Positions 19,830 to 56,978 of a stretch of 64,000 nucleotides of DNA are shown here, piece after piece (positions within the stretch are counted from its first letter, which is position 1; each line of letters opens with the position of its first letter). The position numbers were made by a program, and so were the translations under genes. The stretch is from Raja brachyura (Eukaryota): contig OY740785.1 in NCBI GenBank assembly GCA_963514005.1, forward strand, positions 49,538,001 to 49,602,000, written 5' to 3'. The notes under the pieces were generated by a model. It did no database searches, had not been told where the DNA came from, and saw only the letters and a list, made by a program, of their open reading frames with translations.

Positions 19830-20775
19830 AATGCTGCGAACTATAGGCCGCTGAGCTTAACATCTGTAGTTGTAAAGTTACTAGAGAGTATTCTGACGGA
19901 TAGGATATACAGGCATTTAGCCGGATAAGGCTGATTAGGGATAGTCAGCATGGTTTTGTACGTGGGAGGTACAAATTTCACAAATCTGATTGAGTTTTCT
20001 AAAGACGTGACTAAAAGGTTCGATGTTGTATACATGGACTTCAGCAAAGCATTCAACAAGGTTCCTCATGGTAGGCTGCGCTAGAAGGTTAGATCGCATT
20101 GGATCCAATGATCAATGGATAGAAAATTAGCTTCATGAAAGGAAGCAGAGCGTGATGGTGGAAAGTTGTTTCTTGCACTAGAGGCCTGTGACTAGTGGTG
20201 TGCCTCAGGGTTCATTGCTGTTTGTCATCTATATCGATGATTTGGATGTGACCATACACGGCAAGATTAGCAAGTTTGCATATGATACAAAAGTGGGTGG
20301 TTTTGTAGAAAGTGAAGATGTTTGTGAAAAATTACAGCAGGATCCTGTTCGATTGGCCAGCTGGGCTGAGGAATGGCTAATATAATTGAACACAGAGAAA
20401 TGTGAGGTGTTGCATTTTGGGAAGTCTAACATGGGTAGGACCTACACAGCGAATGGTAGGGCTCTGGGTAGTGTTATAGAGCAGAGGGATCTAGGAGTGC
20501 GGGTGCATTGTTCCTTGAAGGTGGAGTTGCAGGTACATCGGGTGGTCAAAAAGGCTTTTGGCTCATTGGCCTTCAACAGTCAGAGTACTGAGTATAGATG
20601 GTCATGTTGCAGTTGTATAAGACGTGGGTGAGGCCACATTCAGAGTACTGTGTTCAGTTCTGGGCACTAAGTTATAGGAAAGATGTCAAGCTGGAAACTG
20701 TACAGATAAAATTTACGAGGATGTTGCCAGGACTAGAGGGTCTGAGCTATACAGAGAGGTTGAGCAGGCTGGGTT
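19830..20775 (+). mobile_element. CR1-clade ORF2 RT-region fragment (pseudogene)
   Basis: NYRPLSLTSVVVKLLE, SQHGFV, DFSKAFNKVPH, TSGVPQGS, KFAYDTKVGG, KCEVLHFG, VRPHSEYCVQFW. Confidence 0.9.
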
Positions 20776-22356: not shown

Positions 22357-24197
22357 ATGGACAAAACGGGAAAGGGGAAGCGGCGAGTCGCAGCCAGCGG
22401 GTTTGGAACAGCTGCCGCATACCCCTGTTCAGTCGCCGGGTAAAAATGTAGGGACTACAGTCTTCATGCCACACAGCACAGAGCCTGCGCCAGCCGGGCG
22501 CAAGGCAACTCAAAAGTCTGCTAGGCCCATGGAGTTGGGGGATGATTCCTCACACACCTATCCCAAGTGGAGGAACTGTTACATACAGTGCTCCAGCAAG
22601 GCACACTCCAGCAGGAGGAGTGTCAGCGCCACTCAGAACTAGAGGCTCCAGCAGCAACAGGGCTGCTTGATAACACCTTCATATATGATGAGGGGAGTGC
22701 AATGGGTCAGCTTAGTCCTGACCCCGAATCTGATGGGGAGGTTGAGCCAGGAGAAAATCTGGATTTACAAGATGTCCCACCTCTGGTAGCATCATTTGCT
22801 GTCCGCTCCGGTTCAGGAGAGCCACTGGGAGAAGAGCTGGCTTCTACAATTAATTACATGGTTTCTCATCAGCTCCAGGAGCTCACCATGGATGAGACGG
22901 CCAAGAAACATGAGCCTCCAAAGAACTGTGGGTTATTACAAGTGCCAATGGTTAACCAGGTCATATGGGCTCAGATGGGACCCGGCATGCGTAACCAAGA
23001 AATTAAAATGCAGAGGGTTCTAAGGCTTTTGGGCTCTGGGATCACAGCATTCGCTAGGACGATGGATGGAGGGCATGTGTCAAGAACACAACAAGAGGCA
23101 CTGAGTTTGCTATGCAGTGCACACTTTGAAATAAACTGTGTCAGGAAAAGGGCTATTAGGCCCACCATAAACCCAAGCTTCGCCACGCTTTGTAAACCAT
23201 CCAATATCCAGCCTCCAAACATACTTAGAAACATAGAAACATAGAAATTAGGTGCAGGAGTAGGCCATTCGGCCCTTCGAGCCTGCACCGCCATTCAATA
23301 TGATCATGGCTGATCATCCAACTCAGTATCCCGTACCTGCCTTCGCTCCATACCCTCTGATCCCCTTAGCCACAAGGGCCACATCTAACTCCCTCTTAAA
23401 TATAGCCAATGAACTGGCCTCAACTACCCTCTGTGGCAGAGAGTTCCAGAGACCCACCACTCTCTGTGCGAAAAAAGTCCTTCTCATCTCGGTCCTAAAG
23501 GATTTCCCCCTTATCCTTAAGCTGTGACCCCTTGTCCTGGACCTCCTCAACATCGGGAACAATCTTCCTGCATCTAGCCTGTCCAACCCCTCAAGAATTT
23601 TGTAAGTTTCTATAAGATCGCCTCTCAATCTCCTAAATTCTAGAGAGTATAAACCGAGTCTATGTAGTCTTTGTTCATAAGACAGTCCTGACATCCCAGG
23701 AATCAGTCTGGTGAACCTTCTCTGTACTCCCTCTATGGCAATAATGTCCTTCCTCAGATTTGGAGACCAGAACTGTACGCAATACTCCAGGTGTGGTCTC
23801 ACCAAGACCCTATACAACTGAAGTAGAACCTCCCTGCTCCTATACTCAAATCCTTTTGCTATGAAAGCTAACATACCATTCGCTTTCTTCACTGCCAGCT
23901 GCACCTGCATGGCTACTTTCAATGACTGGCGAAAAGCTCGCAAAACGAGTCTACAACGAGTTAAGGACATGAATGAGGAGGCTAAAATGATGGGCCTGAT
24001 GAGAACAACGATGACCGGAAAACCGCTTAAAAGGAAATATCCTTATAGGAGCACTACAGCTTCCGGGGTTACACCAGGAACAAGCTGGCCTTCGACCCAG
24101 GGGCACGGTTGGCGCCCTATGTTTGGATCACGAACAACCATGGGGGCTCCTGCCAGGAACTGGGGTCACCAAGTCACACCAGTCACCAGGGAGGTAG
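22357..24197 (+). pseudogene. DIRS gag-like ORF1, disrupted by stops/frameshifts and a CR1 insertion
   Basis: caccATGG start (MDKTGKGKRR..); core LASTINYMVSHQLQE..PPKNCGLLQVPMVNQVIW..QEIKMQRVLRL is homologous to the ORF1 remnants of copies 2 and 3. Confidence 0.8.
23226..23929 (-). mobile_element. Young 5'-truncated CR1 LINE inserted in DIRS gag
   Basis: Uninterrupted ~200-aa ORF2 C-terminus (AVKKANGMLAFIAKGFEYRSREVLLQLYRVLVRPHLEYCVQFWSP...) and tagaaaca tail; close relative of 1220-1861. Confidence 0.95.
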
Positions 24198-26117
24198 GTG
24201 GGCCTGGTTCTCATGGAAACATATTATGTGTTACACAGCCAAAAATTGGGGGTAGATTACATCTATTCTATGAAGAATGGAAGCAACTTACTTCAGATCT
24301 GTTTATTAGGAGTGTTATTTAAGGGTTTTGGATTGAGTTCGATCCAAACGGTAATTTGCCTCTCCAACAGGTTCCTAGCAGAAAACTCAATTTTTCACAA
24401 ACAGAAGTAATGGAGGTTCAGGCGGAACTTGAAAATTTGTGTAACAAAGGGGTAATTGAGAGGACGGTTCATCAAGTCCGTCAATTTGTGTCAAATATAT
24501 TTCTCCATCCTAAAAAGGATGGAGGATGCAGAATTATTTTGGATCTAACTAATTTAAATCCATTTGTACTCTATAGACACTTCAAAATGGAAACATTTGC
24601 TACCGCCTAACTACTGATTTACAGAGGTTGTTATATGGCAACCATAGATCTGAAAGATGCGTACTACTCAGTGCCTGGTCATTTTGAGCATAGAAAGTAT
24701 TTTACATTTTCTTGGATGAATCAATTATGGCAATTCAAGACACTGTCTAATGGGTTAACTTCAGCTCCTAGAGTATTCGCTAAATCGTTAAAACCAGTTC
24801 TGGGGCTACTTAGAGCCCAGGGCCATGTGATTATGGCCTATCTGGGTGATATCTTAATTATCGGACAAACAAGTGAGTTAGCTGAAACATCTGTGGCAAT
24901 TGTTAAATTCACACTTGAAAAACTAGGGTTTGTCATTCATTTAGGGAAGTCTAAATTGACACCACTTACCACAATTAATTATTTGGGTTTCACAATTGAT
25001 TCACTCAAAATGGTAGTTACTCTGCCCAGGGAAATAAGAGTGAAGCTCATTGATGGTTGCAATAAACTTTTAAATGAGCAACAACCTTCAATCAGAGAAG
25101 TGGCCAGGCTGCTTGGGAAATTAGTGGCAGTGTTCCCAGCAGTTCAATTTGGGCCTTTGCACTACCAGCAATTACAGAGGGCAAAGGAACAGGCACTCAG
25201 GATACATTCGGGTCATTATGATAGGCCCATGCAATTATCAGCAGACGCAGTTACTGATCTCCAGTGGTGGATTCAACATGTCTCCAATAGTTTCAGCACA
25301 GTGGTGCTAGAACAACCGCCCATGGTCTTACAGACTGATGTCAGTGCACTTGGGTGGGGTACCACAGATACGAGCTCAAGCTGTGGGGGCAGATGGAGTA
25401 TGGAAGAAATCTTGCTTCTGCAGACATGGGGAATTAACCATTTAGAGTTTCTAGGGGGCATTTTATGGGCTCAAGGCTTATTGCTCTAACATGAGTAGTC
25501 TGCATGTTCAAATTGATAACTCTATGGCAGTAACTTATGTCAATCACATGGGTGGTATCAAGTCACTATCTTGTGACAAACTGGCTAACCAAATCTGGAC
25601 CTGGTGTATTGATAAGAACATTTGGCTTTCAGCTATTTAACTACCAGGTAGATTCAATATAGTAGCAGACACCAGGGCATGGAACATCCATGACAACATA
25701 GAGTGGATGTTGAATCGGGAAGTATTCAATGATATCATTGTCAAATATGGAAGGCCAGATGTCAACTTGTTAGCATCCAGACAAAACCACCAGCTACCCA
25801 AATATGTGTCATGGGAACCAGATTCTGGCACAATAGCAAATGACGCTTTCCCTCTGCATTGGAGTGGTATGTTTCCATATGCATTTCCACCAATTTGTCT
25901 CATAAATCGATGTCTGCTTAAAATCGAGCAGGATGATGCTTCAGGGGTGCTGGTGATACCAGACTGGCCTGCCCAGCAATGGTCCCCTTTGATATTGCAG
26001 TTGATGACACAACCCCTGATGGCTGTTCCCAAACAAAGGGATTTACTGGTGCATCCGGTAACTGGCGAATGCCATCCATTGTATAACCGTATTGATTTGT
26101 TAATTTGCAGATTTTAA
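24140..26117 (+). pseudogene. DIRS pol: reverse transcriptase, RNase H and adenine methyltransferase-like domain
   Basis: GGRLHLF..W; PKKDGGCRIILDL; IDLKDAYYS; GLTSAPRVF; YLGD (expected YLDD); RNase H LQTDVSALGWG, INHLE, VQIDN; MT-like DVNLLASRQNHQL, YAFPP, LVIPDWPAQQW; in-frame stops at ~24320 and ~24608. Confidence 0.93.
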
Positions 26118-27076
26118 GAAGGCCATATCTGCAGCGCGGATTGTCTGGTCAAACTGTGGACATGCTCACTGCAGCCTGGAGAATGAGTACTCAAAAGCAG
26201 TATATCACTTATGTAAAAAAATGGGAAGTTTACTGTGTATATTGACTATTGTACAGCAGGTATCTCGCATGTTCTAGAGTTCCTGTCAACCCTCTACTAT
26301 GAAGAAGGGCTGAGTTATAGTGCAATCAATACCGCTAGAAGTGCTTTGTCATCGTATTTAGTAATGAGGTCAGACAAACATCCTATTGGGTCTCACCCTC
26401 TCGTTGTTCAATTAATGAAAGGGATTTTTAATTCCTGACCCCCTAAACCTAGATATATGGCAATTTGGGATGTAAGCATGGTCCTCAGACTACTGCGTGA
26501 GTGGGTCCCTGTCTCATCCCTGCCTTTGGCCAAAATCACCATGAAGGTGGCCATGCTCATGGCATTGGTATCAGCACAGCGAGTACAGACAATACAAAAA
26601 CTACAGCTAGATAGCATGGAAATAGTTGCAGATAATGTTACATTCTACATTTATGACCTCCTCAAACAAAGCAGGCCAGATGTGACAAGGTTCAAAATAG
26701 TGTTTTCAGCATATCTCACGGATCCATCCCTATACATAAAAACACATTTGATGCAATACATTGCAGCTACAGAGGCCTTGCGTAACATGGAGACAGGATT
26801 CTTTATCAGTTACAAAAAGCCACATAAGAGAGTGTCAGCTCATACTATTTCACGATGGTTGAAACAAGTCTTGATTGATGCAGGTATTAACACTGATGTG
26901 TTCACATCTCATTCTACCTGGGCAGCAGCTACGTCGGGGCCAAGGCGAAGGACGTGCCCTTCGACCATATTTTGACGGCTGCCGGGTGGGCAAATGAGCT
27001 GATGGTTTGAACTTTCTATCATCGGCCGATTGCCGATCCAGGGCTGTTTGCCAATGCTATTTTGAGTTCTGTTTAA
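26090..27076 (+). pseudogene. DIRS tyrosine recombinase (YR)
   Basis: AWRMSTQKQY, LSYSAINTARSALS, LMALVSAQRV, ISRWLK, HSTWAAATS (HxxR Arg changed to Trp), AAGW, FYHRP. Confidence 0.92.
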
Positions 27077-54065: not shown

Positions 54066-55091
54066 AGATCTTCTTTGGAGTGTGAGAGAAAACCTGAGCA
54101 TCTGAAGGAAACCTATGTGGTCACAGGTAGAATGTGAAAATTACGCACACAGCACTCGAGGTCAGCATTGAGTCCAATTTGCTGAAACTGTGAGACAGTG
54201 GCTCAACTAATAAATGCCACTGTGCCACAAAGCATGACTTCAAATAAAATATTTGATTAACTCCAAATTAGAGACTGGTAGTTCATGTTGAAAATCGGGC
54301 AATTAAATTGAGATTATTGACATGCTTCGGAAATTGCTATAGTACCAGGAGACAGGTATAGGGATGACAGGCATGTAGGTAGAATATGATCACAGGTTTG
54401 GTGCATTGTGAACCCAATAATCTACTACATACACAAACAACTAAGATGATGGAAAAGGAGATATCATATCCAAGTTTGTTAATGATACAATGATTGTTGG
54501 CAAGATAAACAGTGTCAGGCAAAACATTACATTGCAAACACCATAGATTAAGCAAATGGTAAAAGAACAAGTCAAGTACAATTTAAGGTACACATGCATT
54601 AGATCATTGGAACCAAGCACATTTGGTCACTTTGGAAACAAAATAAACCTGACAGTACACTTTCAATGAAACACTGTCACAAATGTAAATTACAAAAGCA
54701 AACTTTTTTTTTAACAAATTAGAAAATACCAGAGATGGTTGATCAAGCTGCATCTATGGATGGGGAACATTTCTAATTGATGAATATAATCAGGCAGAAA
54801 AGTTTAAAGCTTCTCTCTTCATGGATGTATCCTGACTCATTATATATTTCCAGCATTTTTCACTTTTAAGTTTAGAAAAAGAGTTTGGAGTCGGTATGCA
54901 TCTATTAATGAAGTGCCATGAACAAGCCAAATGGATTGTGTTTTTAAATCTAAAGGTTCAGAATTAAGAAAGTAGAATCATGTTACAGCTATGCAAAGCG
55001 CTGGGTAGAACACAACTAGTATGCTGTAATCAGTGTAGGAAAGAACTGCAGATGCTGGTTTAAATCAAAGGTAGACACAAAATGCTGGAGT

Positions 55092-55229
55092 CTTCTTCTT
55101 GCGTCTGGCGTGCACAGCCTAAAGTTGGAGGACAACTTGTTCTATTTGATCTTATTTGATTGTGCATGCCAGGTTGATTGTATTCGTCGAAACAGGGCGG
55201 ACCACGTGAAGGTTGCAATCTCCCACCCC
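55092..55229 (-). mobile_element. ~138-bp non-autonomous retroposon with (AAG)n tail and ~11-bp TSD (Ingi/Vingi- or RTE-type by inference)
   Basis: Flanked by aatgctggagt (55081-55091) and aatgctggatt (55230-55240); minus strand ends ..gctgtgcacgccagacgcaagaagaag. Confidence 0.85.
55176..55229 (-). ncRNA. Minimal HDV-like (CPEB3-type) self-cleaving ribozyme fold
   Basis: GGGGUGG GA GAUUGCA ACC UUCACGU GGU CCGCCCU G UUUCGA C GAA UACAAUC: P1 7 bp with G1-U wobble, P2 6/7, P3 ACC/GGU, L3 UUCACGU, catalytic-position C followed by GAA. Confidence 0.8.
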
Positions 55230-56978
55230 AATGCTGGATTAACTCAGCAGGACAGGCAGCATCTCTGGATAGAAGGTATGTGTGACATCTCGATTCCTTC
55301 ACTCCAGAGATGCTGCCTGTCCCGCTGAGTTACTCCAGCATTTTGTGTCTGCCATGCTGTAGTAAGTTCTGGACTCCAGAACAAAAAAAAATATTGACCT
55401 TGAGGGGAGTGCAGCACGTGATAATACTAGGACTGGCAGAATGAAGTAACAAGGAGCAACAACAGAACCTGCGATACAGTGGTTAAATACAATAAATGTG
55501 GTTCCAATGAAGGGTAATGACCCGAAACATTAACTCTTTCACTATCCACAAATGTGTGTCATAATTTTCTGTTTTTATATTATATGTGGTCCCTAAGCTT
55601 TGTAAGCAGTTGTCAGTTGAAAATAAACAGTTAAAAGAATTGTGCAATATTCTGGATTTTAAACAGGCTCCTAATATTTATATGTTCCTCGATTTAAAAA
55701 CTGCAACCTGTTTAACTTCAAGGCAACAGTGTAAAAATTATAGCTGATCCTTTATGACTGAAATTAGGAAATATTTCTATGTGCAGAGCTGTGGCACTTG
55801 GAACTTTTTTCTATGAATGGTAATTGATGCCTGGTATGTTGATCATTTTAAATCTGAGAATAAATCTTATTGAATAGCAATGTAGGCTTGAGGAGCATGT
55901 TGGCTGTTCTTGAAGTCTTATGTCCTGATGATTTCATTTGCAGACAAGCAATTGAATAAACCAGTTCATTCTGTTAAGTCCAAAAAAATGACTTGTGGTT
56001 GGGTTATGTTTTCTCTTCTCATGTATTCTGTCTCTGTTTTACAATTTTCCTGGCTAGGGGTCAGTTCTCAAACAGAGCTGTGAAATTCCACACCATTATC
56101 AGCATTGCTGCTGCACAAAAATGTCATAAAATATTTTTAGAAAAAATCGCTTATACAGAAAAGTTTTTTTAAAACTCTGAACAGAAAACGTTTCATTGGG
56201 CTTTTTGACATCAGATCATAATTCCCAAATTCACAGAAGTTATTTTGGTCTCCTCCATTTCCACCAACCAAATCTCAATTGTGCTCAGTTTCTACCTAAA
56301 ATAGCATTGGGATACTGAAACCCCATTGTAATACTGCAAAATACAAGGGCAGTTCAGAACCAGGTAACAAGGTGCACTTTGAAAGCAATAGCTGACACTG
56401 CTGAAAGTGAAAAGCTGCCTGTGCAAATCACAAAAACTTTGATAACTGATTGAACTGGGAAGGAGCTTTCTTCTGTGGTGCTATATGACTGGTTTGGTAG
56501 TGCCGCAAGTAAGAATTTCATTGTTCTGTTTCGGGACATGAGACAATAAAACACCCTTGACTCTGTTGACTAAGCATATTTGCTTTCAATTTTAGATGTC
56601 TAACATTTGAACATTTCCCCTTAGGTCAATTGGTACAACAAGTGGGAGATGCACGAAATTTGTCAAATTAGAAAAGACTAAAGAGAATTTGGATGAAATA
56701 AAATGCATTCAATTTCAAATAATTAAGAAATGAAACAAGCAAAATTAAGAAATCAAATATCAGCTAGGCTCTTCCCATTTCAAATAATTTCTAAATCCCT
56801 TCCTTCTTGCGGTGGCATTTTCGATCTTAATGCCTACATCATAGCAGTTTACTAACATTTGGTTGGTGATAATATTATTAATGTTGATCCTCGATCATTT
56901 GTTAAATTTGAAAGATTCAATGTTTGTTTGGATAAAGAACACGCAGATACAACTTTGATACATATATTATATGTATCA

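Follow-up and report, generated by a model that had tools for sequence, protein, structure and literature searches.

The 138-bp insert described here, from the genome of Raja brachyura (2.7 Gb), is very probably (roughly 80%) a non-autonomous retroposon derived from both ends of an approximately 3-kb Vingi-like LINE. It is headed by a predicted HDV-like ribozyme lacking P4, which likely excises it, and the protein of the LINE likely copies it. The copy number, the fixed 5′ end at G1, the target site duplications (TSDs), the ends shared with the LINE, and the compensatory changes of the fold across LINE families were observed directly. Throughout, the window denotes the whole analyzed stretch of DNA (64,000 nucleotides).

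The initial annotation, made from the sequence of the window, described a 138-bp minus-strand insert with a TSD of about 11 bp and an (AAG)n tail. The analysis confirmed this structure at positions 55229–55092; the tail is (AAG)3, and the TSD is 11 bp long and contains one mismatch (Table 1). The palindromic host repeat that the element interrupts is common among the fetched loci and may resemble Penelope-type ends; the only Rfam matches in this region were hairpin look-alikes belonging to it. Elsewhere in the window, at 22546–26975 and 47755–48234, reverse transcriptase and tyrosine-recombinase-like frames were found (Pfam RVT_1; Phage_integrase below the cut-off), which likely represent decayed DIRS-type retrotransposons.

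Table 1. Features of the insert and its surroundings, in window positions; bases of the element are counted from G1.
Positions	Strand	Feature	Remarks
55230-55240	-	TSD, upstream copy	11 bp; differs from the downstream copy at one position
55081-55091	-	TSD, downstream copy	
55176-55229	-	Predicted 54-nt HDV-like ribozyme without P4	Element 1-54; G1 = 55229 = 5′ boundary
55223-55229	-	P1, 5′ strand	Partner 55194-55200; G1-U36 wobble
55214-55220	-	P2, 5′ strand	Partner 55176-55182
55201-55213	-	P3-L3-P3	U20, U21, C22, A23, G25, U26 in CPEB3 numbering
55187-55193	-	G37-U38 (P1.1) and 5-nt loop in the place of P4	
55183-55186	-	J4/2	55186 = C44, predicted to be catalytic; at base 45, subfamily 1 has G, whereas subfamily 2 and the parent LINE have U
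55181	-	G49A of the window copy	One P2 pair lost (G in 65/65 aligned copies)
55149-55229	-	Homology with family F (parent Vingi-like LINE), 5′ end	Element 1-81; alignment to L395
55161-55171	-	5′ arm of the predicted end-to-end helix	Partner 55106-55116; one mismatch in the window copy
55122-55138	-	Inner hairpin across the deletion junction	
55092-55135	-	Homology with family F, 3′ end	Element 95-138; last codons, stop 55119-55121, 3′ UTR, tail
55106-55116	-	3′ arm of the predicted end-to-end helix	
55092-55100	-	(AAG)3 tail	Like Vingi-like families of the same genome
55070-55353		Older palindromic host repeat interrupted by the element	Arms 55230-55279/55293-55342 and 55070-55091/55332-55353

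All helices listed in the initial annotation were recovered in the head, namely P1 (1–7/30–36, with G1-U36), P2 (10–16/48–54), and P3 (17–19/27–29). L3 (20–26), G37-U38, J4/2 (C44-G-A-A), and the C15-A49 mismatch in P2 were likewise present in the window copy. The head thus combines a 7-bp P1 with the G1 wobble, P2, a 3-bp P3, a 7-nt L3, and P1.1 in the nested double-pseudoknot order of HDV-like ribozymes. The core of L3 (U20, U21, C22, A23, G25, U26) is the same as in CPEB3 (PMC4836649, in part), as the initial annotation had stated. One detail had to be revised: P4 is indeed reduced, but the proposed 1-bp stem was not retained. If U38 lies opposite U21 as in CPEB3 (PMC4836649, in part), only five unpaired bases are left in the place of P4, and the helix is better called absent. 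Its absence fits the minimal HDV-like class, members of which are active without P4 (bioRxiv 10.1101/2023.06.13.544163, in part).

The fold was searched for with a descriptor requiring a 7-bp P1 starting with G, a P2 of 6–8 bp, a 3-bp P3, a 7-nt L3, the C22-G37 pair, and CNRA; its numbering was checked against PMC4836649 (in part). The descriptor gave a single match on both strands of the 64-kb window, exactly at 55229, and none in 1,536,000 bases of Markov control; a control with A, G, or T in place of the C gave 3 stray matches in 30 and was not used. The comparison with HDV and CPEB3 covariance models suggested in the initial annotation turned out negative, as Rfam returned neither an HDV nor a CPEB3 match to the element at E ≤ 10, nor any other small-RNA match. 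Nested (pseudoknot-free) folding was no better than that of shuffled sequences (z −0.48 for the whole element, +0.57 for the head). In a near-majority copy, nested folding formed P2 together with alternative helices in place of P1, pseudoknots being outside the model.

The idea that the insert represents a repeated family was borne out by a 17-mer from its 3′ half, which had 11,604 exact matches in the genome (control 0), i.e., at least 11,604 copies. The total copy number is likely near 20,000, judging from the exact-word count and a non-CpG divergence of 2–4%, a value biased low because copies were picked by an exact word. The sample comprised 69 of the first 70 places listed, all on contig C1 and picked by the 3′ word regardless of the head; one pair was a duplication. 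The expected start at the predicted cleavage site held for most of them: 52 of the 69 copies begin at G1, 59 within bases 1–3, and 66 within bases 1–6, and three begin at bases 48, 63, and 81. TSDs of at least 8 bp (mode 11–12) flanked 54/69 copies vs. 3/333 with swapped flanks. The base preceding G1 was T in 34 of 59 full-length copies, with which an endonuclease or ribozyme preference and untemplated addition are all compatible.

Two subfamilies were distinguished, with 31 and 37 of 68 copies and non-CpG divergences of 4.0% and 2.2%, respectively; inside the head, they differ only at the unpaired bases 8 and 45. The family is young. Base 49 was G in 65/65 aligned copies, so P2 is intact in the family, as had been predicted, and the core bases were mostly kept (C44 in 59/65, U20 in 63/66, G25 in 61/65). 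The window copy belongs to subfamily 1 with five differences from the subfamily majority, through which P2, the end helix, and the inner hairpin each lose one pair; this copy is probably dead or weakened. The element sequence was also found in sequencing data of at least seven organisms, and a loose contig end fell at the deletion junction in four sequencing runs.

LINEs were collected by a Pfam endonuclease search and then a protein search in which 143 of 480 candidates were scored, and six families of compact APE-RT LINEs, named A–F, were recognized in the genome. The autonomous-type partner sharing both ends, which the initial annotation had proposed to look for, was found as family F: its 5′ end matches bases 1–81 of the element and its 3′ end bases 95–138. 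The element is thus an internal-deletion derivative and not a SINE with an independent head, so that of the original “ribozyme-headed SINE-like family” the ribozyme-headed family stands, refined to a two-ended derivative that arose from a Vingi-like LINE by internal deletion. Family F starts with the head of the element and continues into an ORF (13 loci), and it ends with the last 44 bases of the element, including the stop codon; the parent LINE is about 3 kb long with a single ORF. About 49 candidates were counted at its 5′ end and 741 at its 3′ end, and no copy was intact among those seen, all being decayed. Among the 13 copies that reach the head, only two align from base 1 and the rest from bases 2–13. 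Such ragged starts fit reverse transcription halting in the fold, and they weaken the claim that cleavage alone sets the boundary. U5-A32 of the parent corresponds to U5-G32 in the miniature, so the pair is kept; all head differences among the parent and the two subfamilies are either this pair-keeping change or lie at the unpaired bases 8 and 45. The element inherited its predicted ribozyme from the parent Vingi-like LINE. At one locus (L258:401–540), a subfamily-2 miniature sits inside a copy of its own parent.

Vingi elements are compact, with a single ORF encoding APE and RT and lacking RNase H (PMC13708176, in part). The elements found here are 3.0–3.4 kb long, and protein relatives of about 1000 aa, on contigs of 3.2–4.1 kb, gave APE and RT matches and no RNase H match; in the fragments and in these relatives, Pfam finds APE and RT only. 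The parent therefore fits a Vingi-like LINE by architecture and published descriptions, rather than by an RT tree with named references. At least five further Vingi-like families (L175, L220, L229, L237, L269) occur in the genome, each with an HDV-like head (family C by eye only). Families A, B, D, and E have AAG-repeat ends, with 5,199 candidate 3′ ends in family A. A teleost protein (P0002) is 66% identical to the C-terminal part of family F, and horizontal transfer is possible. Among the matches listed in searches for a LINE with the ends of the miniature, almost all were indel variants of the miniature; one locus, L270, carries the 3′ end of family F. Other candidates were discarded: the best matches to PF14529 were an I/Nimb-like element with an RNase H-like region and CR1/L2-like elements, whose ends are unrelated to the miniature; family A was dropped as the parent because family F matches both ends; and a supposed hybrid (L330) turned out to be a deleted miniature. 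The genome also contains, in abundance, an I/Nimb-like LINE that has two ORFs and long open frames (L120–L149, L170, L171, L186).

Five of the LINE families (A, B, D, E, and F) and three metagenomic elements gave a descriptor match at their 5′ ends; the head of family C failed the descriptor and fits by eye only. Applied to 80 metagenomic loci, the descriptor gave 6 matches, one of them spurious, most loci lacking a 5′ end or failing. In L220 and L237, the TSD directly adjoins G1, and in L462 it is no more than one base away. Across eight Vingi-like families, both-sided (compensatory) changes were found at pairs 3–7 of P1, at most pairs of P2, at pairs 1 and 3 of P3, and at C22-G37. The J4/2 cytosine, U20, and G25 were constant save for one G25 change in one copy, and P4 ranged from 46 down to 5 nt. 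The pair table was chosen by a descriptor that requires pairing and is not fully independent; the independent evidence thus comes from where the folds lie, at the termini of the elements, and from the relatives that match Rfam models. An AUG in the frame of the ORF straddles J4/2 and P2 in families F, A, and B and in L449 (seen in L371, L191, L220, and L449), and is missing there in D, E, C, and L436; in the window copy, G49A destroys it.

The clearest Rfam match came from a full-length, decayed 3.16-kb Vingi-like LINE on metagenome contigs (L461–L463, a single element) with a TSD and a (CAT)n tail. Its head (L461:3575–3658, also L462 and L463) passes the CPEB3 model with 55.6 bits (cut-off 35; E 1.2e-12). 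It matches the CPEB3 consensus at 35 of the first 38 bases, and two of the differences form a compensatory pair. Since P1 and P2 of the other families are quite different, shared descent of this head and CPEB3 appears more likely than convergence; the available portions of the literature on the origin of CPEB3 state no LINE origin. Further matches, below the cut-off, were to HDV-F-prausnitzii (L436:303–369, E 1e-4; L456:359–423, 3e-4; L432:953–1019, 0.06).

In the miniature, bases 59–69 are predicted to pair with bases 114–124 around the inner hairpin (3′ part z −2.66; 2/200 shuffles). The two arms derive from opposite ends of the LINE, and both are retained by the deletion; the junction lies at the inner end of the duplex, so the deletion removed the loop. 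When the segment after P2 was compared with the 3′ ends in families F, A, B, D, and E, the cognate assignment ranked 1 of 120 at three overlapping window sizes; this test included one wrong 3′ row (L245), dropped from the later permutation test, and it covered the families with an available 3′ end sequence, thus all but C. By energy, single families were significant for F, A, and D (8, 6, and 0 of 1000 shuffles) and not for B and E (113 and 236 of 1000), and by the ungapped score F, A, D, and E were not significant singly (55, 29, 92, and 132 of 500). For eight elements together, 2 of 40,320 permutations reached the observed score, the window sizes and the score having been chosen after the helices were seen. 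Three outside elements fetched after the idea arose had helices of 13/13, 11/12, and 15/16 pairs (1, 16, and 0 of 500 shuffles). The helix stops 5–12 nt before the tail in 7/8 elements; the top four energy windows of L436 and L462 did not include the terminal duplex. Pairing of the ends is thus predicted by these models in the miniature and in most full-length relatives examined. Among the papers listed in a literature search, none was relevant to end pairing of such LINEs or to Vingi elements in skates, and the HDV passages of a review covering Vingi concern R2.

The same observations were weighed against other explanations. The element could be an ordinary Pol III SINE in which a degenerate small-RNA head is joined to a LINE tail; it is short and of high copy number, its tail is LINE-like, and a B-box-like word with two mismatches lies at bases 38–46. 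This is very improbable: a protein-coding LINE has the entire head as its 5′ end, from which the sequence continues into the ORF at 13 loci, no small RNA in Rfam matches the head, and, as the initial annotation had claimed, no exact A or B box is present. A closer alternative shares the origin proposed here but attributes the fixed 5′ end to an internal Pol II promoter within the head, comparable to Pr77 of L1Tc, the P4-less fold being slow or vestigial. Pr77 is both a promoter and a ribozyme (PMC3383444, in part), and the raggedness of the parent copies, together with a head that has no P4, no Rfam match, and a competing nested fold, would suit this explanation. We nevertheless regard it as unlikely, since every diagnostic change among the parent and the two subfamilies keeps the pairs and core bases, the fold covaries across families of otherwise unrelated sequence, and P4-less ribozymes are known to cleave (bioRxiv 10.1101/2023.06.13.544163, in part); moreover, the two functions are compatible.

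It is rather probable that the end pairing acts in RNP recognition or in template jumping. The complementarity may instead be incidental, a product of composition or a by-product of template switching with no part in mobilization, the 3′ tail alone being recognized. The weak or non-significant results of several families taken singly, the choice of windows after inspection, and the shorter helix of the younger subfamily 2 compared with subfamily 1 speak for this explanation. We consider it less likely than not, because cognate pairs beat non-cognate pairs as a set, the distance of 5–12 nt between helix and tail recurs in 7/8 elements, and all three of the later-fetched elements show the helix (1, 16, and 0 of 500 shuffles).

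If the element is a ribozyme-headed derivative of both LINE ends, its cycle may be pictured as follows. Transcription would proceed by read-through or from the element itself, and Mg2+-dependent self-cleavage 5′ of G1 would release the RNA. The segment after the ribozyme would then pair with the 3′ end, closing a loop of about 3 kb in the LINE; in the miniature, this pairing would form a local hairpin. As the shared ends suggest, the APE-RT protein of the LINE would bind in trans, and target-primed reverse transcription from the AAG tail would create a duplication of 8–15 bp. Loss of the loop with both arms kept may explain why miniatures arise and why they outnumber the parent.

Two-ended (bipartite) non-autonomous LINEs have been described for RTE, Ingi, Vingi, and R2 (PMC5786205, in part). 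Because family F shares both of its ends, the skate element appears to belong to this kind: both ends come from one autonomous-type LINE, the middle is missing, and the element has been amplified on its own with TSDs and the tail of its partner. Its closest counterparts are NARTc, RIME, and SIDER of the L1Tc/ingi clade, the sister clade of Vingi, which are also short and non-autonomous and keep the 5′ HDV-like ribozyme of the LINE (cut at +1) and its 3′ end (PMC3383444, PMC4035085, in part). Those are trypanosome elements with a 77-nt ribozyme including P4, a poly(A) end, and demonstrated promoter activity and cleavage (PMC3383444, PMC4035085, in part), whereas the skate element is from an animal and has a predicted 54-nt ribozyme without P4, an AAG tail, and predicted end pairing. 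In R2 SIDEs of Drosophila, a ribozyme and a 3′ end are similarly joined via an internal deletion and mobilized in trans, as is presumed here; however, R2 SIDEs are rDNA-specific, rare, and of an RLE-type source, while the skate family is dispersed in more than 11,000 copies and of an APE-type source (PMC3414825, in part). Non-autonomous derivatives of Vingi-1_EE likewise arose from a Vingi LINE by internal deletion and retain its two ends (PMC5786205, in part). The HDV-like core without P4 is shared with minimal HDV-like and theta ribozymes, which are found in metagenomes and phages next to tRNAs (bioRxiv 10.1101/2023.06.13.544163, in part), whereas the one predicted here heads an animal retroposon. 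The numbering and the core (G1-U36, U20, U21, C22, A23, G25, U26, G37, U38) are those of mammalian CPEB3 (RF00622), which differs in having a full P4 and a single intronic copy (PMC4836649, in part); the skate element does not match its model. The element is thus, on well-supported sequence comparisons, a known kind of ribozyme-bearing two-ended LINE miniature in a new variant that is Vingi-like and has a predicted minimal ribozyme and predicted paired ends.

The question of why only RTE, Ingi, Vingi, and R2 yield two-ended miniatures was left open by Kojima 2018 (PMC5786205, in part), and a conserved end-to-end helix would be a testable answer to it. We tentatively propose, as a possibility that may well fail, that RNAs of Vingi-type LINEs are looped by a helix between the post-ribozyme segment and the 3′ end, and that the ribozyme and the helix constitute the whole cis signal for retrotransposition. 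The 138-nt element would then be the minimum of this signal with an active 54-nt ribozyme, and mammalian CPEB3 a domesticated head of the same clade. If true, this unit would explain both the two-ended miniatures of the clade and the presence of both UTRs in Vingi gene-writing templates, and the 138-nt natural minimum would define the cis signals of this clade, which is already in use for gene insertion (PMC13708176, in part). The near-identity of the L461 head to CPEB3 bears on the origin of the CPEB3 ribozyme. In the skate itself, the predicted head, at more than 11,000 places, would rank among the smallest HDV-like ribozymes that occur naturally in animal genomes. All pairs and core bases are kept in 23 of 68 sampled copies (19 were not scorable); thus, many of them could cut host transcripts.
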